From: a virus
Taxonomy: Duplodnaviria > Heunggongvirae > Uroviricota > Caudoviricetes
Virus record (IMG/VR): IMGVR_UViG_2684622620_000008
Length of the DNA stretch: 4,985 nucleotides
Strand: one strand, 5' to 3'
A program made the position numbers and the translations under genes. The notes beneath the pieces were generated by a model. It searched no databases. It saw only the letters and a program-made list of their open reading frames with translations, and was not told where the DNA came from. Positions 1 to 4,985 of the stretch are shown one piece after another. Numbering within the stretch: the first letter of the stretch is position 1; the number at the start of each line of letters is the position of its first letter.

Positions 1-546
1 CAGTGCAATGCTGTCCAGAATACGCGTGACCTGAACGCCTGAAATCCCAAAGGCAACAGTGACCGTCAGGCATTCCTTTGTGAAATCATCGACGCAGGTA
101 AGACACTTGATCCTGCGACCGGTGGAAAGTGCGTCCATGACGAAATCCATCGACCAGGTCAGATTGGGCGCCGCCGGACGGAGCAGCGGCAGACGTTCTG
201 TTGCCAGCCCTTTACGACGTCTTCTGCGTTTTACGCCCAGGCCACTGAGGTGATAAAGCCGGTACACGCGCTTATGATTAACATGAAGCCCTTCACGGCG
301 CAGCAACTGCCAAATACGACGGTAGCCAAAACGCCTGCGCTCCAGTGCCAGCTCAGTGATGCGCCCTGATAAATGCGCATCAGCAGCCGGACGGTGAGCC
401 TCATAGCGGCAGGTCGACAGGGATAAACCTGTAAGCCTGCAGGCACGACGTTGCGACAGACCGGTCGCATCACACATCAACATCACGGCTTCCCGCTTCT
501 GGTCTGTCGTCAGTACTTTCGCCCAAGAGCCACCTGAAGCGCCTCT
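1..546 (-). CDS. IS3-family transposase OrfB (DDE catalytic domain), 5' part only; expected to be expressed as an OrfAB fusion by -1 frameshift
   Basis: My own translation of the minus strand in the frame ending at 511-513: RGASGGSWAKVLTTDQKREAVMLMCDATGLSQRRACRLTGLSLSTCRYEAHRPAADAHLSGRITELALERRRFGYRRIWQLLRREGLHVNHKRVYRLYHLSGLGVKRRRRRKGLATERLPLLRPAAPNLTWSMDFVMDALSTGRRIKCLTCVDDFTKECLTVTVAFGISGVQVTRILDSIAL, with no stop down to position 1. It is -1 relative to OrfA, overlaps the OrfA 3' end (513-546), and contains the first D-containing motifs of an IS3-type DDE transposase (WSMDF, CVDDFTKE). The 231-473 ORF in the supplied track is a different frame and is not this gene. Confidence 0.85.
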
Positions 547-773
547 TTATCCAGCATGGCTTCGGCAAGCAGCTTCTTGAGTCTGGCGTTCTCTTCCTCA
601 AGCGACTTCAGGCGCTTAACTTCAGGCACCTCCATACCGCCATACTTCTTACGCCAGGTGTAAAACGTGGCATCGGAAATGGCATGCTTGCGGCAGAGTT
701 CACGGGCGGGTACCCCAGCTTCGGCTTCGCGGAGAATACTGATGATCTGTTCGTCGGAAAAACGCTTCTTCAT
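510..773 (-). CDS. IS3-family transposase OrfA (helix-turn-helix DNA-binding and leucine-zipper part)
   Basis: 87-aa ORF MKKRFSDEQIISILREAEAGVPARELCRKHAISDATFYTWRKKYGG...LEEENARLKKLLAEAMLDKEALQVALGRKY. The N-terminal HTH followed by heptad leucines is the conserved OrfA architecture of IS3/IS407-group elements, and it is immediately followed by the -1 OrfB frame. Confidence 0.9.
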   Translation of the reverse strand: MKKRFSDEQIISILREAEAGVPARELCRKHAISDATFYTWRKKYGGMEVPEVKRLKSLEEENARLKKLLAEAMLDKEALQVALGRKY

Positions 774-814
774 GGGGATGTCCTCATGTGGCTTATGAAG
801 ACATTACTAACATC

Positions 815-844
815 GGGGTGTACTAATCAACGGGGAGCAGGTCA
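815..844 (-). repeat. IS terminal inverted repeat (transposase-proximal end); the inner boundary is approximate
   Basis: The outermost IS bases on the minus strand are TGACCTGCTCCCCGTTGATTAGTACACCCC (reverse complement of 815-844). Only the outer boundary at 844 is supported; the partner IR is outside the window, so the IR length cannot be measured. Confidence 0.5.
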
Positions 845-869
845 GAGCAACCCGTCCAATTTGGTTTGC

Positions 870-888
870 TCTGCTTTATACTAAAGCA
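870..888. other. Lambda-att-core-like motif and 7-3-7 palindrome in the int 3' flank (candidate attachment-site core or Int/IHF-type binding site)
   Basis: Plus strand 870-885 reads TCTGCTTTATACTAA. The lambda common core is GCTTTTTTATACTAA (attB flank CTGCTTTTTTATACTAA), so this matches with three T's missing from the T-run. 872-888 (TGCTTTA TAC TAAAGCA) is a perfect 7-bp inverted repeat with a 3-bp spacer. Orientation relative to int (core on the plus strand, int on the minus strand to the right) is the same as in lambda. Confidence 0.3.
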
Positions 889-908
889 ATAAAGGGAGTA
901 ATTTATTA

Positions 909-2087
909 TTAGCTGGCTTTAATTTCTCCATGGGGAACGACAACCCAATCTATATGATTTTGCGTGTAGATCTTGGTTGACTTCGCATCGCTGTGCGCCA
1001 TTCGTCCTTGTGGATCGATACCCTGCTGATCGAATAGATGCGCTGCTAGTGCTCGAATTTCGTGAAAGGTTGGTCTTTCATCCATTGGTAGATTGTCGCA
1101 TAAACCTAGTTTGTCCCGTGTAGCTGAAAACGACCTACTCAAATAGTCCGGTGCAACTTGAGTAGGATGTGAAACCTCTTTGCTGCGTTTAACTTGGCGT
1201 TCTGGGATCCTGTGAACGACAAACGGACTGGCCACATTATCTCGGCTATCGTCAATTATCCGTTTCAACTCTTCACCAATTGGTATTGCAACGTGTGACG
1301 CCTCTTTTTGTTGCACTTTTTGCCTGTGGATGTAAAGCGTCCCATATATGCCATTTTGTGGTTGTTCGAACCAGACACATCCACATATACCGTCTTTAGG
1401 TTCGCGAATTGAGTAACGGATTCGCGATACTTCGAGTCGTGCATGTGTAGTCTGCAATGCTAGGTCCATTGCTGTTCTTAACCATGGTGCAGCGGCCTGC
1501 CTGATAGCTATAAAATGCTCGAGTGACAGGCGCCGTCTTTTCTTCTCATCAGTCCTACGCATTTTTTTTCTGATGGCCGGGTTATCCAGCATTAGTGATT
1601 CATCGACCGCATAAGAGAACAACTTTTTAAGAAAGCTGACCTTTCTGTTCTGCACATTTGCGGATGCGCTGGCATGATATTTGTTGATGTAGGTATTAAC
1701 GTGTTCAAGTTCGATATCGCATGCCGGAACATTTACGAAAAACGCTTTTACGCGTAGAGCGTCATTTTTCCAGTTATCTAAGGTGCTCTGGGAAGGACGT
1801 TCGTCTTCGATAATTCGGGCCATTATGTGATCAACATGTTCAGCAAATGGTTTTGCTTCTCCGATAACACCGCCAGATTCTCTAATAAGATTATCTACTG
1901 ATGGAGATAATTCTGGTCGCATCCTCAGGTTGTACTCTCTGGCGATTGCAATGGCTATTGCCCTATCCTTACCTATATTTTTCTTCTTTCCGGTAATAAG
2001 TGTGAATTTATAAACACCTCGATCTTTATCAAAAATCAGATAATCAGGAAGATGTCTGTATTCTTTTTTACGTGGCCTTGCCGCCAT
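909..2087 (-). CDS. int: Phage tyrosine integrase, lambda Int type (N-terminal arm-binding domain plus C-terminal catalytic domain)
   Basis: The N-terminus MAARPRKKEYRHLPDYLIFDKDRGVYKFTLITGKKKNIGKDRAIAIAIAREYN parallels lambda Int (MGRRRSHERRDLPPNLYIRNNGYYCYRDPRTGKEFGLGRDRRIAITEAIQAN). The C-terminal motifs HEIRALAAHLF and MAHSDAKSTKIYTQ match the lambda HELRSLSARLY and LGHKSDTMASQY catalytic His/Arg/Tyr box. GAGGGG lies 8 nt before the ATG at 2087; the supplied ORF begins two codons earlier at a GTG (2093) that overlaps the xis stop, and either start is possible. Confidence 0.9.
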   Translation of the reverse strand: MAARPRKKEYRHLPDYLIFDKDRGVYKFTLITGKKKNIGKDRAIAIAIAREYNLRMRPELSPSVDNLIRESGGVIGEAKPFAEHVDHIMARIIEDERPSQSTLDNWKNDALRVKAFFVNVPACDIELEHVNTYINKYHASASANVQNRKVSFLKKLFSYAVDESLMLDNPAIRKKMRRTDEKKRRRLSLEHFIAIRQAAAPWLRTAMDLALQTTHARLEVSRIRYSIREPKDGICGCVWFEQPQNGIYGTLYIHRQKVQQKEASHVAIPIGEELKRIIDDSRDNVASPFVVHRIPERQVKRSKEVSHPTQVAPDYLSRSFSATRDKLGLCDNLPMDERPTFHEIRALAAHLFDQQGIDPQGRMAHSDAKSTKIYTQNHIDWVVVPHGEIKAS

Positions 2088-2089
2088 GG

Positions 2090-2299
2090 TCACCCCTCAT
2101 TTATTAACTTGCGAACAGCTTGACTAACCATTGAGTCGACTCCCCATTTTTCTGTTTCGCAGACAAAAACAGAACCGTCCACGATACGCCCCATGAGCAG
2201 ACCGTTCTCGACCCAGCGTTTTATCGTTCGGTTGTCAGGAATTGAGCCATTAGAGAATTCACGGCGTCCCCATTGGCTCGCTTTCATTAGTTTTGCCAT
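2090..2299 (-). CDS. xis: Excisionase (Xis), lambda-like small winged-helix recombination directionality factor
   Basis: A 69-aa product MAKLMKASQWGRREFSNGSIPDNRTIKRWVENGLLMGRIVDGSVFVCETEKWGVDSMVSQAVRKLINEG lies immediately upstream of int, with its stop (2090-2092) overlapping the int start region. It has the lambda Xis pattern (QW..R, T..RWV, DG). The start is taken at the ATG at 2297-2299, which is preceded by GGAGAAACAGCC; the supplied ORF begins 15 codons earlier at an ATG with no obvious RBS. Confidence 0.7.
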   Translation of the reverse strand: MAKLMKASQWGRREFSNGSIPDNRTIKRWVENGLLMGRIVDGSVFVCETEKWGVDSMVSQAVRKLINEG

Positions 2300-2360
2300 G
2301 GCTGTTTCTCCACTTAACCCGCTGCACACGGGCAGTAATATCAAATTTCAGTCCTGATAA

Positions 2361-2576
2361 TTAATTTTGTTCTATGGTTGCTACCTGTTTAATTGGCCTG
2401 ATGCTGTCCAGGAGCAGTCGGCGGCGCGTATTTTCTGCAAAGTGGCGGCGTCCGGTTTCTTTGTGGTAAAACTCGTTTTTTCCGACGACCCACATCCGCT
2501 TTGTCTGGTGCAGTTTTTTTACCTGCGGACCGTTTCGGGTAATAACAATTCCTGTATGAGTTTTTATCACGCTCAT
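2361..2576 (-). CDS. Hypothetical small basic protein (71 aa), function unknown; lambdoid early-accessory (ea-region) gene
   Basis: ORF MSVIKTHTGIVITRNGPQVKKLHQTKRMWVVGKNEFYHKETGRRHFAENTRRRLLLDSIRPIKQVATIEQN. Its ATG (2574-2576) overlaps the TGA of the upstream gene (2573-2575) in an ATGA arrangement, which argues for real, translationally coupled expression. It has the same orientation as the operon. I do not recognise the family. Confidence 0.5.
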   Translation of the reverse strand: MSVIKTHTGIVITRNGPQVKKLHQTKRMWVVGKNEFYHKETGRRHFAENTRRRLLLDSIRPIKQVATIEQN

Positions 2577-2935
2577 TTCTTATTCTCCGGTGCTTTCGGC
2601 ATTACTGCCCAGTGAGTGATATTGACGTTTTCAAGGTCCCCGACCTGAAATGTCCACTGCCATTCTCCGGTTTCTTTTTGCCCCCATGTGTACCAGAGAG
2701 AACGCCAGCCAATCAGCCAGCCTTCTCCGTTAACATCAAATAACAGAACACTTTCATTTGCTGGTGGCAGTTCAGCTGACACTGGTATTACTTTGTTTTC
2801 CAGTGCTGCACATTTAGCTTCAAGCGCATCTAATTTACGCACCAGGTATTCAGCATCCGTTTCATTCACTTTCAGGTCTCGTGGTACACATCTCCCGCGA
2901 AGAAACCCTTCCATTTCGAAAACATTCATGCGCAT
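2573..2935 (-). CDS. yfdS: DUF551-like phage protein, YfdS homolog (N-terminal coiled-coil segment, C-terminal Trp-rich domain)
   Basis: 120-aa ORF. The C-terminus GEGWLIGWRSLWYTWGQKETGEWQWTFQVGDLENVNITHWAVMPKAPE has the Trp-rich ...THW.MP.P signature that I associate with DUF551 proteins of lambdoid prophages. Length and position after yfdR match K-12 yfdS as I recall it. An alternative start is the ATG at 2927-2929, which overlaps the yfdR stop (ATGA). Confidence 0.7.
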   Translation of the reverse strand: MRMNVFEMEGFLRGRCVPRDLKVNETDAEYLVRKLDALEAKCAALENKVIPVSAELPPANESVLLFDVNGEGWLIGWRSLWYTWGQKETGEWQWTFQVGDLENVNITHWAVMPKAPENKK

Positions 2936-3462
2936 TTTCGTAACTCCGATAACTCGTGAAAGCGTTCCATAAACATCCCGTAGGCATGGCCCGGTGGCAT
3001 TGGAATCACGTTGAACATCTCTGTTGCCGGGATGCCTTCCAGTACCGGCCAGAAAGAGCCATCATCAAGCCCGAGATCGCGGCGTTCGGTTGCCAGCATA
3101 ATGAGATCGGCATATTTCACTGGCGTGCTCATAACAGGAGGTAACCCGTATTTCTCACGGATTACGGCGTCTATTTTTTCTTCCATCCGTTTATAGTCAG
3201 GAAGAAGGCGTTTCAGTGGCGCGGGGATGTCCTGGCAATATGCTTCTGTTGCATCATGCATTAACGCTTCAAAAGCAAATTCCTGCTGCACCAGCTGGCT
3301 GCAAAGCACCGCATGTTGGGCGACACTGTAGAAGTGTGAAAGATGACCGGCAAAGCGACAGATATTTGAAAGGGAAACCGCGATATCGTTAATCACGATG
3401 TCGTCTTTATTTATCCTGTCATAATAAAAATGCTTCCCGGAAAAAGTTTTAATAAATGACAT
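2926..3462 (-). CDS. yfdR: HD-domain phosphohydrolase (YfbR-like 5'-deoxynucleotidase family), YfdR homolog
   Basis: 178-aa product from the ATG at 3460-3462 (MSFIKTFSGKHFYYD...), preceded by GGAGAACAAA. HD-domain motifs are visible: H..H in RFAGHLSHFYSVAQHAV, HD in ALMHDATEAY, and downstream acidic residues (KYADLIM, ERRDLGLDD). Length and position match K-12 CPS-53 yfdR as I recall it. The supplied ORF starts 10 codons earlier at an ATG with no RBS. Confidence 0.85.
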   Translation of the reverse strand: MSFIKTFSGKHFYYDRINKDDIVINDIAVSLSNICRFAGHLSHFYSVAQHAVLCSQLVQQEFAFEALMHDATEAYCQDIPAPLKRLLPDYKRMEEKIDAVIREKYGLPPVMSTPVKYADLIMLATERRDLGLDDGSFWPVLEGIPATEMFNVIPMPPGHAYGMFMERFHELSELRKCA

Positions 3463-3555
3463 TTTGTTCTCCGCGTATATGTGCTGCACCACGCTGAATT
3501 CTGGTAAAAGGAAGCCCTCACCATCCGGCGATTATTGAGTCAATTACGTTTCCAT

Positions 3556-3577
3556 AAATGCCCCCGCAGGGGCATTT
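3556..3577. other. GC-rich stem-loop in the yfdQ-yfdR intergenic region (possible weak terminator, attenuator or RNA-processing hairpin)
   Basis: AAATGCCCC-CGCA-GGGGCATTT is a perfect 9-bp stem with a 4-nt loop. It begins 12 nt after the yfdQ stop on the minus strand. The trailing U-run is only 3 and is base-paired in the stem, so it is not a canonical strong intrinsic terminator. Confidence 0.4.
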
Positions 3578-3589
3578 GCAGTAATGAAA

Positions 3590-4414
3590 TCAGGCGGTGA
3601 AAGTACCAATAAAGGTTTCTACTTTGCTGTCCTTGAATTTCTCAACAAGCAGATCACGAAATTCGTTAGCCATTTCTTCCTGCACTGCTTCCAGCTGAAT
3701 AATGCGCAGAACCAGTACAGGACGATCGCCAGTGATAATGCTGAGGCGTAATTTAAATGGACGTTCTTTCAGGCCTTCAAACGGAACGCATTTAAATTCA
3801 AATGCCACTGGCATAATGTCTTTGGTCTTCGCTTCGACAGACTCCATCAGGGAGCGTTTGCCGCTGAAGTCATTATCTTCAAAATCAGCGGTCTGGTTTG
3901 CTTCAATCGTGATTTTACGGACAGCCGCAGCCGCTTTTGTTGCCTGAATAGCGTCACCATTAGCATCAAAGCCCACAAGGTAGTCGGCCCAGTCTTCAAT
4001 CCATTCTGCCAGTGACTTCTGGGAATTACGCTCGCCATTAACAGACAACAGAGCAGAGAACGGTGCTGTCTTTTTCAGTTTGAGAGTGGCGGTGTTATCG
4101 GCGTGACCTGGTTCATCAATAGTACCCAGGTTAAGAACACTGACGGCACGCATATTATCAGCATCGATAAAGCAGCGGGTGCCTTCATCTGCAAGATCTT
4201 TAGAATAACAGGTAAAGTCATCGATGCTGGCAGTGGAAAGCGCACCACGGAAACGGAAGCGATTTAAATTAAATTTTTCCAGATCATGAATGCGGAAATT
4301 CTCAGGCAATGCCACAGCATCGGCACCAATCTTACTGATAATTTCATTAACACCCTGAGCAGAAATAAGAGCATGGATTTGATTAATTGCGGTTGCGTCT
4401 AAGTTCTGAGACAT
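3590..4414 (-). CDS. yfdQ: Prophage protein YfdQ homolog (I recall it as a DUF2303-type protein), function unknown
   Basis: 274-aa [28 protein letters not shown]... with GAGGA 7 nt upstream of the ATG. Length and position immediately upstream of yfdR match the K-12 CPS-53 yfdQ-yfdR arrangement as I recall it. Confidence 0.8.
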
Positions 4415-4479
4415 AATAAGTCCTCACTATATAAAGATATTCAGTGATGAGATAAATAATCAGTTAATTAAGAACGATA

Positions 4480-4842
4480 TTAATGACCTGCTGCGCGAAG
4501 TTTTCCGTCAGGTTCACCGGCAAGAGTCAGTAATTGTCCCTGGTCTTCCTGCAGAATAGTCAGGCGACCACCGCGATTGACATACATCGGCGTTTCGGTG
4601 GTGTCTTCTTCAGAAATTTTCCCGCGGTTAGTCGGGCGAACATATGAGAGTTTGTGTTTGATTTTCACACGGTTCTCATCAAACGGTTCGATTTCCAGAT
4701 TGAGTGAGACCTTCCCTTTGGTTTTCGTGTTCATCACACCGGAAGCGACTTCACTGAGAACTGCGCCGATTTTGGTTTCAAATACGCCGCCGTCCAGCTC
4801 CCCGATAAATGCCTGCACATCAGTACTGCGTTCGCTAGCCAT
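4480..4842 (-). CDS. yfdP: Prophage protein YfdP homolog, function unknown
   Basis: Start taken at the ATG at 4840-4842 (MASERSTDVQAFIGELDGG..., 120 aa), which is preceded by GAGGAGCAGCAAA. The supplied ORF begins 6 codons earlier (4860), at an ATG that overlaps an upstream frame's TGA, so a translationally coupled 126-aa form is an alternative. Confidence 0.7.
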   Translation of the reverse strand: MASERSTDVQAFIGELDGGVFETKIGAVLSEVASGVMNTKTKGKVSLNLEIEPFDENRVKIKHKLSYVRPTNRGKISEEDTTETPMYVNRGGRLTILQEDQGQLLTLAGEPDGKLRAAGH

Positions 4843-4856
4843 TTTGCTGCTCCTCA

Positions 4857-4985
4857 TCATATCGACCCTGCAAGGCCGATTAGTTTCTCCACAAAACAGA
4901 GAAGAACACCTGCGGTGGCAGCCGCCCGGATGGATTGGGTTATGAGCCCGTCGTCCGGTGATGCTCTTCTCTGTTTTGTAAAAAG
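4857..4985 (-). CDS. Possible 3' end of an upstream minus-strand gene running off the window (partial)
   Basis: The minus-strand frame ending at the TGA at 4857-4859 is open to the window edge (about 42 codons, ...ITQSIRAAATAGVLLCFVEKLIGLAGSI*), and its stop overlaps the first ATG of the yfdP ORF (ATGA). The yfdP frame is also open to the window edge, so the coding assignment here is uncertain. Confidence 0.25.
   Translation of the reverse strand, partial: LFTKQRRASPDDGLITQSIRAAATAGVLLCFVEKLIGLAGSI
4891..4979. repeat. Inverted repeat, 17-bp arms with one mismatch, about 55 bp apart, upstream of yfdP
   Basis: 4891-4907 ACAAAACAGAGAAGAAC pairs with the reverse complement of 4963-4979 (GCTCTTCTCTGTTTTGT gives ACAAAACAGAGAAGAGC). 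The interior is GC-rich with further short inverted segments (CACC...GGTG, CCGGA...TCCGG). Confidence 0.5.

Follow-up and report, generated by a model that had tools for sequence, protein, structure and literature searches.

The closest described relative of the genes considered here lies in CPS-53 (KplE1) of Escherichia coli K-12, a 10-kb cryptic remnant in which yfdP, yfdQ, yfdR and yfdS continue into yfdT-ypdJ-torI, with intS at the opposite end of the prophage. IntS and TorI, named in an earlier note on this DNA as the integrase and excisionase of CPS-53, are both present in the K-12 gene table. IntS carries the Pfam domain Arm-DNA-bind_3, which is typical of P4-type integrases.

A report on this cluster to which the earlier note referred exists and says what the note attributed to it: in multicopy, yfdQRS or yfdQRT inhibits replication initiation (Noguchi & Katayama 2016, PMC4776307). 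In that K-12 assay yfdQRS without yfdT sufficed, and YfdQ was needed for the phenotype. Purified YfdR binds DnaA in a Phe46-dependent manner, competing with DiaA and DnaB, and extracts oversupplied with YfdQRST inhibit oriC replication in vitro (PMC4776307). An effect on replication has been seen only with the genes in multicopy, deletion of yfdQRST has no effect, and the authors themselves raise the possibility of an overexpression artefact (PMC4776307).

Related blocks are widespread, the cassette being among the commonest early-left accessory blocks of lambdoid phages (PMC12315714). In Shigella phage SfV (orf29-orf32), with which SfIV and the Stx2c-converting phages are grouped, the block belongs to the early-left operon and has xis-int immediately downstream of it. 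SfV also keeps orf28 at the position of yfdT and has its own xis and int, unrelated to IntS and TorI, with gtr serotype-conversion genes beyond int. In phage mEp460 (gp31-gp35), gp31 is followed by Ea22-like, DUF551, exonuclease and excisionase genes, and a Rci-like integrase lies several genes away from the cassette.

Here we compare these systems with a 4,985-nt stretch of DNA (the window), whose features are collected in Table 1. The window would come from a lambdoid prophage, probably situated at proL/yejO/narP on a chromosome of E. coli type, and would cover the part of its leftward early operon that is farthest from the promoter, with the order structured leader RNA, yfdP, yfdQ, yfdR, yfdS, orf71, orf69, int. 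In the reading that we favour, with a probability of roughly 0.85, a circulating yfdPQRS cassette stands at the end of this operon beside a divergent lambda-type Int, and the DnaA model derived from K-12 would apply to it. Recombination at gene boundaries has probably placed this widely circulating cassette beside many unrelated integration modules.

Table 1. Features of the window, with positions counted from its first nucleotide.
Feature	Coordinates	Strand	Description
ISSen4 (IS3 family), 3' part	1..844	-	99.5% identical to ISSen4 copies; contig ends inside element
Target-site duplication GAGC, 4 bp	845..848	.	~60 nt downstream of int stop codon
Tyrosine integrase, lambda-type	909..2087	-	392 aa; PF09003 Arm-DNA-bind_1, 26.7 bits (cut-off 22), E=5.8e-6, residues 3-58
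69-aa ORF, candidate excisionase by position only	2090..2299	-	ends 2 nt ahead of int ATG
71-aa ORF, in place of K-12 yfdT	2361..2576	-	matches phrog_1226 (function unknown)
yfdS homologue	2573..2935	-	120 aa, DUF551-like C-terminus; 112/117 identical to K-12 YfdS, E=2e-87 (BLASTP)
yfdR homologue	2926..3462	-	178 aa, HD-domain 5'-deoxynucleotidase; 172/178 identical to K-12 YfdR, E=4e-135 (BLASTP)
yfdQ homologue	3590..4414	-	274 aa, DUF2303; 271/274 identical to K-12 YfdQ (BLASTP)
yfdP homologue	4480..4842	-	120 aa; 119/120 identical to K-12 YfdP, E=3e-90 (BLASTP vs MG1655)
Structured leader RNA element	4885..4985	-	upstream of yfdP; ~100 nt; absent from K-12

Identity and distribution of the yfdPQRS cassette

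The match of the four genes to K-12 CPS-53 is far beyond chance. The ORFs lie exactly where the earlier note had placed them, and its assignment of them to YfdP, YfdQ, YfdR and YfdS is borne out by protein identities of 99%, 99%, 97% and 96%, respectively (E from 2e-87 down to 0). At the DNA level, positions 2585-4861 align with CPS-53 over 2277 bp at 96.9% identity and without a gap, with the same order, spacing and strand for all four genes; the last three residues of YfdS differ from K-12 because the homology ends at 2585. The yfdPQRS blocks of the window and of CPS-53/KplE1 are orthologous. No promoter or terminator signal above shuffle expectation was found inside the cassette, which is consistent with a single operon, and the hairpin in the yfdQ-yfdR spacer is no more stable than shuffled sequences (z=-0.43).

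Family assignments are in line with these identities. The YfdP homologue matches phrog_204, of unknown function, and an identical yfdP gene in a relative of the window (L006) carries the precomputed Pfam assignment PF27127 YfdP. The YfdQ homologue matches PF10065 (E=7.9e-92) and the 36-chain PDB entry 9o7m, 'YfdQ Protein' (E=1e-44), for which our literature search found no paper; its structural model (pLDDT 75.6) returned no PDB fold neighbour at E<=0.001, 9o7m itself being absent from the Foldseek results. In YfdR, the H...HD...D motif is intact (AQH, MHD and YAD, as in K-12), and the six substitutions all fall elsewhere; the protein matches phrog_318, 'deoxyribonucleoside 5' monophosphate phosphatase' (E=5.5e-109), and aligns to an HD-type protein deposited as hypothetical (PDB 2gz4, E=9e-14), while the Pfam YfbR-like and HD_3 matches fall below their cut-offs. 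Finally, the YfdS homologue matches phrog_583 and reaches 21.6 bits for PF04448, slightly below the cut-off of 22.

Among the 5426 complete E. coli genomes searched, 2446 have at least 80% of the cassette, in up to seven places per genome. It is ~97% identical in SfV, SfIV, mEp460, 1720a-02 and Stx2c phages. The likeness to SfV extends over 2585-4985 (97.3% nucleotide identity), leader element included, and that to mEp460 over 2392-4985 (97.0%), taking in the 71-aa ORF (94% amino acid identity), yfdPQRS and the leader.

The integration module and its junction with the cassette

Downstream of yfdS, the window departs from K-12: in place of yfdT-ypdJ-torI it carries a 71-aa ORF, a 69-aa ORF and Int. 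The K-12 cluster is therefore not itself adjacent to the integration genes found here. The 71-aa ORF has no similarity to YfdT in BLASTP, which leaves this cassette without a yfdT counterpart, and is identical to mEp460 gp31 at 59 of 63 positions. In contrast, mEp460 does not have the orf69-int pair, and the DNA homology with SfV stops upstream of both genes.

The earlier note had proposed a lambda-type int/xis pair, and of this the integrase is supported, while a lambda-type excisionase is not. The integrase, judged by its sequence, is a divergent lambda-type Int, unrelated to IntS, with which it gave no significant alignment. It shares with lambda Int the arm-binding N-terminal domain (for which lambda Int itself, as control, scores 112.9 bits against PF09003), the three-domain layout and the HxxR/H columns, but is only 24% identical to it over 363 aa (E=2e-17) and ~35 residues longer. 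In the alignment the HxxR and second-His columns are invariant, and the box I Arg and the Tyr are present but offset by one column; the PF00589 Phage_integrase domain scores 19.1 bits, under its cut-off of 27.1. The integrases of phages Eeyore and Flotzy are 77% identical to it. Read from its ATG start, the protein has exact-sequence copies on nine public contigs, whereas an exact look-up of the version read from a GTG start matched nothing; through these copies the window was found to correspond to contig LECG01000115.1 in its entirety.

The 69-aa ORF abuts the start of int, as lambda xis does, and is a candidate excisionase by position only. It has no detectable similarity to lambda Xis (BLASTP E=0.61; hhalign probability 7%), no significant match to TorI by BLASTP or hhalign, and no match in Pfam Exc (PF07825, against which lambda Xis scores 141 bits as control), PHROGs or NCBIfam. 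Its 64 homologues are named hypothetical, bar one with a DUF4817 label. The AlphaFold model, of low confidence (pLDDT 56.6), has a helix / beta-hairpin / helix pattern, and a Foldseek search returned nothing significant, the best matches (E>1) including some winged-helix or MerR-like proteins. Seemingly strong PDB matches to WD40 proteins had zero passing stretches and were taken as a short-repeat artefact. As a family, these ORFs are candidates for the excisionase that goes with this lineage of integrases, and are not annotated as such.

How unusual, then, is the junction of cassette and integrase? The earlier note implied that it was uncommon, and this is not supported. At least four unrelated integration modules adjoin the cassette (those of K-12, SfV, mEp460 and the window), and the int/xis pair and yfdPQRS do not travel exclusively together, as the numbers of genomes that have them show. 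The integrase type of the window is admittedly far rarer than the cassette (109 genomes versus 2446), as might be expected if their junction were a rare, recent and functionally meaningful fusion. We regard such a fusion as highly improbable, however, since the junctions lie at gene ends (at 2585, in the last yfdS codons, and at 2392, in orf71), as in ordinary lambdoid exchange, since int to yfdP is arranged identically in 92 complete genomes, which come from many hosts and countries, and since the block has been known directly upstream of a different xis-int in SfV since its description in 2002 (cited in PMC4776307). The presence of the block in almost half of complete E. coli genomes beside many integrases instead marks the int-yfdPQRS arrangement as ordinary phage mosaicism, and one more integrase beside the cassette is the outcome expected from modular phage evolution. 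As a finding, a common cassette beside one more integrase type is already known and adds little.

In agreement with the suggestion that the block is carried by a more complete phage than CPS-53, relatives of the window element are complete prophages. The lambdoid prophage of FORC_042 is complete, at ~44 kb, and ends at tRNA-Pro/yejM; int-to-yfdP makes up its left arm, and it has genes for terminase, portal, capsid, tail and lysis. In L006, whose sequence is 99.5% identical to that of the window, the whole early region can be followed up to and including Q. Judging from these relatives, the prophage sampled by the 4985-bp contig would likewise be complete.

Beyond int, the window ends in an insertion sequence, identified as ISSen4 by its near-identity to other copies, its OrfA HTH (510-773, PF01527), an IS1222_FSE frameshift element (426-543, 156.6 bits) and TG...CA ends with a short duplication. 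A megablast match reaching 854-859 proved to be chance similarity, the true end having been fixed against another copy. Comparison of L006, which has ISSen4, with a relative that does not (L012) shows a simple insertion with GCTC/GAGC flanking both sides. ISSen4 is a later insertion, directly beyond int and outside any gene.

An insertion sequence beside int, together with the cryptic state of CPS-53 in K-12, the frameshifted yfdS and deleted yfdQ/yfdP of EC20-4B-2 and the several frameshifted early genes of VE-V11-M, could suggest that the cassette no longer has a function in this genome and is prophage cargo in the course of decay. This seems very improbable to us, given that seven of seven ORFs in the window are intact, as are the early genes of L006, that the insertion is simple, with its target duplication present and no gene hit, and that phages able to form plaques or to be induced, SfV and mEp460 among them, conserve the cassette at ~97%.

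Putative role of YfdQRS in host replication

Taking the cassette as a working part of a circulating early-left operon, we suggest the following sequence of events, which extends to the window, by way of 96-99% protein identity, the DnaA mechanism shown in K-12. To judge by its position, the cassette would be transcribed after induction or infection from pL, a promoter that lies outside the window. YfdR, as an HD-domain 5'-deoxynucleotidase, would bind DnaA domain I at Phe46 and compete with DiaA and DnaB, and YfdQ, YfdS and YfdR together would damp oriC initiation and so give phage replication the advantage over that of the host.

A different view of the same proteins gives the cassette a part in lytic growth, whether in nucleotide or DNA metabolism, in recombination or in anti-defence; YfdR would dephosphorylate dNMPs of the nucleotide pool, YfdQ would work as a large homo-oligomer, and DnaA binding would be incidental. 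The assignment of YfdR to PHROG families of deoxyribonucleoside 5' monophosphate phosphatases and its RefSeq name, 5'-deoxynucleotidase, both point this way, as does the 36-chain structure solved for a YfdQ homologue. Phage T5 Dmp offers a parallel, being a dNMP phosphatase that acts on the nucleotide pool. Furthermore, yfbR/yfdQ/yfdP-type genes form the early-left operon of lambdoid phages without a recombination module, such as LLS (PMC12315714), and the possible artefact conceded in the DnaA study (PMC4776307) would fit too. Against this, the same review notes that the cluster is not limited to Rec-less phages (PMC12315714), the YfdQ model gave no fold relative pointing to an activity, and both the direct, Phe46-dependent YfdR-DnaA binding and the in vitro oriC inhibition by YfdQRST extracts (PMC4776307) speak for a genuine effect on initiation. 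We therefore consider a metabolic role a real alternative, if the less probable one, and retain the DnaA model as our preferred account.

The yfdPQRS block is the only prophage cassette known to bind DnaA, and an intact, well-conserved copy of it is carried by prophages that are complete and probably inducible. What YfdQRS does naturally could therefore be tested in a phage context, and not by overexpression.

A structured RNA upstream of yfdP

The ~100 nt upstream of yfdP fold into a candidate leader RNA, which K-12 does not have because its homology with the window stops 19 nt upstream of yfdP. RNAfold gave -61.6 kcal/mol (z=-5.98) for a structure with a 20-25 bp outer stem around two stem-loops. 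Across 24 diverse homologues, 95.3% of cells were paired, versus 38-50% in slid controls, and ten pairs change on both sides (0/500 shuffles); with a covariance model, the sense strand scored 110-118 bits, as against 43 for the antisense strand. The first stem-loop reproduces, without variation, the anticodon stem-loop of the initiator tRNA (GGG / CUCAUAA / CCC), its apical 14 nt, CGGGCTCATAACCC, being identical to the anticodon arm of K-12 metZ tRNA-fMet. The element had no match in Rfam even at E<=10, AgvB, AsxR and STnc100 included, and our literature searches found no published description of it.

The element is not a tRNA gene, as ARAGORN calls none in the window yet finds tRNAs in control loci; the match to tRNA-fMet is confined to the 14 nt in the anticodon arm. 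Compared by description, the element resembles the put RNAs of HK022: it is a structured RNA encoded in cis, has two neighbouring stem-loops and belongs to the early-left leader. However, put RNAs occur as one copy downstream of pL and one of pR, whereas the covariance model found a single copy in L006, L007 and the 49-kb L015, with no putR-like second copy, which argues against a put-like pair. In addition, an outer stem encloses the element, and the terminator-like hairpin nearest to it is on its upstream side, not beyond it.

We tentatively suggest, while holding it doubtful, that this is an undescribed family of phage leader RNAs, acting either as an early-left cis-regulator or as a mimic or decoy of the tRNA-fMet anticodon arm. 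As a cis-regulator of the early-left operon it could possibly serve as a processing site or antiterminator; as a mimic or decoy, it might be aimed at a factor that recognises this arm, for example an anticodon nuclease, MetRS, or the P site of the 30S subunit with IF3. The phage group with this early-left leader is reported to have no N homologue (PMC12315714, PMC9378689), and the conserved leader, with its motif of the tRNA-fMet anticodon arm, could provide such N-less lambdoid phages with a new element for regulation or mimicry. Finally, Klebsiella phages have shorter versions of the leader next to tRNA genes; these possess an acceptor-like stem and end in a 3' RCCA, features that together suggest a tRNA-derived origin.

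The yfdPQRS cassette and its integration genes

An exact-sequence look-up identified the window as the entire 4985-bp contig LECG01000115.1 (assembly GCA_001309675.1; 100% identity), and a 158-kb contig from another assembly, L006, matches it at 99.5% identity across its full length. All genes of interest lie on the minus strand, and 2573-4842 extends exactly from the stop codon of the yfdS homologue to the start codon of the yfdP homologue. As the earlier note had claimed, these four genes are the counterparts of K-12 YfdP, YfdQ, YfdR and YfdS: BLASTP with the MG1655 proteins of the annotated record found 119/120, 271/274, 172/178 and 112/117 identical residues, respectively, and the DNA of 2585-4861 aligns with the cryptic prophage CPS-53 at 96.9% over 2277 bp with no gap. 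YfdQ matches Pfam DUF2303 (E=7.9e-92), the HD/YfbR-like matches of YfdR and the DUF551 match of YfdS are sub-threshold, and the H...HD...D motif of YfdR is intact.

Features of the window and loci carrying homologues of the leader element
Feature	Locus	Position	Strand	Basis or remark
ISSen4 end	window	1-844		99.5% identical to other ISSen4 copies; contig ends within the IS
IS3-family OrfA	window	510-773	minus	ORF call
integrase, 392/394 aa	window	909-2087/2093	minus	ORF call
orf69, 69 aa counted from ATG	window	2090-2299	minus	ORF call
orf71, 71 aa	window	2361-2576	minus	ORF call
yfdS homologue, 120 aa	window	2573-2935	minus	ORF call and BLASTP
yfdR homologue, 178 aa	window	2926-3462	minus	ORF call and BLASTP
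yfdQ homologue, 274 aa	window	3590-4414	minus	ORF call and BLASTP
yfdP homologue, 120 aa	window	4480-4842	minus	ORF call and BLASTP
leader element	window	4885-4985	minus	inverted repeat
leader element homologue	L004	6801-6904
leader element homologue	L003	6995-7098
leader element homologue	L006	7100-7203
leader element homologue	L013	402-527
other short versions of the element	L036, L038, L063, L067, L073, L077, L086, L103, L125

After this block the K-12 prophage continues at its attR end with yfdT, ypdJ and torI, and intS stands at the opposite end beside argW. The window differs from this order after the cassette, in line with the contrast drawn previously: orf71, which stands in place of yfdT, is unrelated to YfdT, and neither orf69 nor the integrase is related to TorI or IntS, respectively. 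IntS carries the Pfam domain Arm-DNA-bind_3, which is typical of P4-type integrases, and the window integrase carries the lambda-type Arm-DNA-bind_1 (26.7 bits vs a curated cut-off of 22). The latter aligns with lambda Int at 24% identity over 363 residues (E=2e-17), with the HxxR and second-His columns conserved and with the box-I Arg and catalytic Tyr present, each offset by one alignment column; its catalytic-domain Pfam match falls below the cut-off. The arm domain and this alignment together support the designation lambda-type Int, as a divergent member.

The pairing with a lambda-type Xis was not borne out, and it is in this respect only that the interpretation in the earlier note, whose observation was right, lacks factual support. 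The orf69 product has no significant BLASTP similarity to lambda Xis (hhalign probability 7%), no match to Pfam Exc (lambda Xis, as control, scores 141 bits) and none in PHROG or NCBIfam, and its 64 homologues found are named hypothetical, except one labelled DUF4817. Its low-confidence model (pLDDT 56.6) has a helix, beta-hairpin, helix order compatible with a winged-helix protein, and gave no significant fold match. By its position only, orf69 is a candidate excisionase. A relationship to WD40 proteins, with PDB sequence E-values to 2e-16, was rejected, as a passing stretch occurred in the weakest match only; these matches probably arise as an artefact, a short motif (…DNRTIKRW…) being added up over many repeats.

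Homology to K-12 and to SfV starts at 2585, twelve bases within the 3' end of yfdS, while homology to mEp460 reaches 2392 and takes in orf71 (94% identical to mEp460 gp31). On the other side, K-12 homology ends at 4861, whereas SfV and mEp460 run on to the window end. These differing limits indicate that the same ~97% block adjoins at least four unrelated integration arrangements: torI beside the block and IntS at the far end in K-12; an xis-int pair of its own, unrelated to IntS/TorI, in SfV; an Rci-like integrase several genes away in mEp460; and the divergent lambda-type Int here. Among 5426 complete E. coli genomes, the cassette (at least 80% of its length) occurs in 2446, at up to seven places per genome, the int/orf69 pair in 109 and the entire 888-4985 arrangement in 92. 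SfV homologues of the cassette have already been pointed out (PMC4776307). The junction between cassette and integrase is an ordinary modular exchange involving no special event, and the arrangement is a routine lambdoid mosaic of a kind already described; novelty, if any, lies in the adjacent leader RNA.

Proposed function of the cassette

The inhibition of replication initiation that the earlier note gave for the overexpressed K-12 cluster agrees with the published work: yfdQRS, and likewise yfdQRT, suppresses over-initiation when present in multicopy and also inhibits normal initiation, and an excess of YfdQRST in the extract inhibits in vitro replication from oriC (PMC4776307). Gene deletion gave no phenotype, and the authors, who state that the overexpression effect is possibly an artefact, suggest that ancestrally the genes acted on DnaA in a way comparable to lambda P (PMC4776307). 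Given 96-99% identity and the intact YfdR motif, the window cassette should act like the K-12 copy; judged from sequence, its proteins would behave as those of K-12 do. Expression would be from pL, since no internal promoter or terminator signal rose above background in the cassette.

The main alternative is that the cassette naturally serves nucleotide/DNA metabolism or another lytic function. This is favoured by the assignment of YfdR as a 5'-deoxynucleotidase, both by annotation and by PHROG family, and by PDB entry 9o7m (‘YfdQ Protein’, 274 aa, 36 chains), a YfdQ homologue that matches the window protein at E=1e-44 and whose 36 chains imply a large homo-oligomeric assembly. No publication on 9o7m was found in the literature searched; the YfdQ model had no informative fold neighbour in the Foldseek PDB search, from which 9o7m was absent.

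Prophage context and IS insertion

The suggestion of a potentially more complete phage holds for relatives of the window, and for the window contig we infer it. Strain FORC_042 has the same int-orf69-orf71-yfdSRQP block as the left arm of a lambdoid prophage of ~44 kb, with repressor/cro, replication, Q, lysis, terminase, portal, capsid and tail genes. In L006 the early region is intact from Q to int, with narP-ccmH as chromosomal flank. Comparison of L006 with the IS-free L012 shows ISSen4 to be a simple insertion that duplicated 4 bp (GAGC, 845-848), ~60 nt past the int stop codon; an IS1222-type frameshift element lies inside it at 426-543.

L012 (E. coli EC20-4B-2, 7001-9574) carries int/orf69 at 99.9% identity in the same narP-yejO locus. 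There, yfdS is frameshifted, yfdQ and yfdP are lost and what remains borders directly on tail and baseplate genes, so that L012 carries this prophage in a decayed form. At its far end the FORC_042 prophage has a tRNA-Pro adjoining yejM, called by ARAGORN (L015 48672-48748). In VE-V11-M, RefSeq gives a 78-nt tRNA-Pro beside yejO (L001 8821-8898) for which ARAGORN makes no call, and which may be a partial att-site duplicate. The analysis suggests that the prophage family occupies proL.

A structured leader RNA upstream of yfdP

Immediately upstream of yfdP lies a ~100-nt inverted repeat, the only element of the window that might be new. Its fold, at -61.6 kcal/mol (z=-5.98), has a long outer stem around two stem-loops. 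With a search pattern that fixed the core and a tested structure derived from one member, 95.3% of cells were paired in 24 diverse long versions, compared with 38-50% in slid controls. At ten pairs both sides change (at one of them, 14 sequences have GC and 10 have CG), a number reached in 0/500 shuffles, and slid controls gave 1-3. The covariance model scores 110-118 bits on the sense strand and 43 on the antisense, which, together with frequent G-U pairs, argues for an RNA in the operon sense.

The core motif occurs in at least 120 IMG/VR contigs. Among the matches listed, 54 distinct long versions are located in early-left leaders, where they precede yfdP or other first genes, and 10 distinct short versions combine an acceptor-like stem with a 3' RCCA. 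These short versions are 73-74 nt long, the core being flanked by GGCCUG...CAGGCC plus RCCA, and the examples examined lie in Klebsiella phages, after tRNA genes and upstream of lysis genes. The copy in Klebsiella phage GZ7 (L016 2478-2543) directly follows tRNA-Asn and tRNA-Arg, and several IMG/VR short copies share its upstream flank; the short versions thus hint at a tRNA-derived origin. The invariant apical tip of the first stem-loop comprises 14 consecutive bases (CGGGCTCATAACCC) of the anticodon arm of the K-12 initiator tRNA metZ (tRNA-fMet).

As a tRNA itself the element was rejected, with no ARAGORN call. It matched no Rfam family and is absent from K-12. Nor is it a putL/putR-like pair, since each phage has a single copy.

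Some viral contigs have the element directly adjoining the yfdQ-yfdR spacer, so that these phages apparently lack yfdP and yfdQ; L023, L041 and L134 are the IMG/VR contigs noted for this spacer, which in the window (3543-3590) holds a 9-bp GC-rich hairpin (AAATGCCCC...GGGGCATTT). The long leader contains no convincing ORF. Directly preceding the element in L006 (7062-7105) is a terminator-like hairpin (GGCGGTACCAG...CTGGTACCGCT then CTTTTT), whose U-tract is the base of the outer stem. Some 450 nt further upstream, at 6598-6640, two TTGCAT-N5-GCAAC repeats look like repressor operators at pL.
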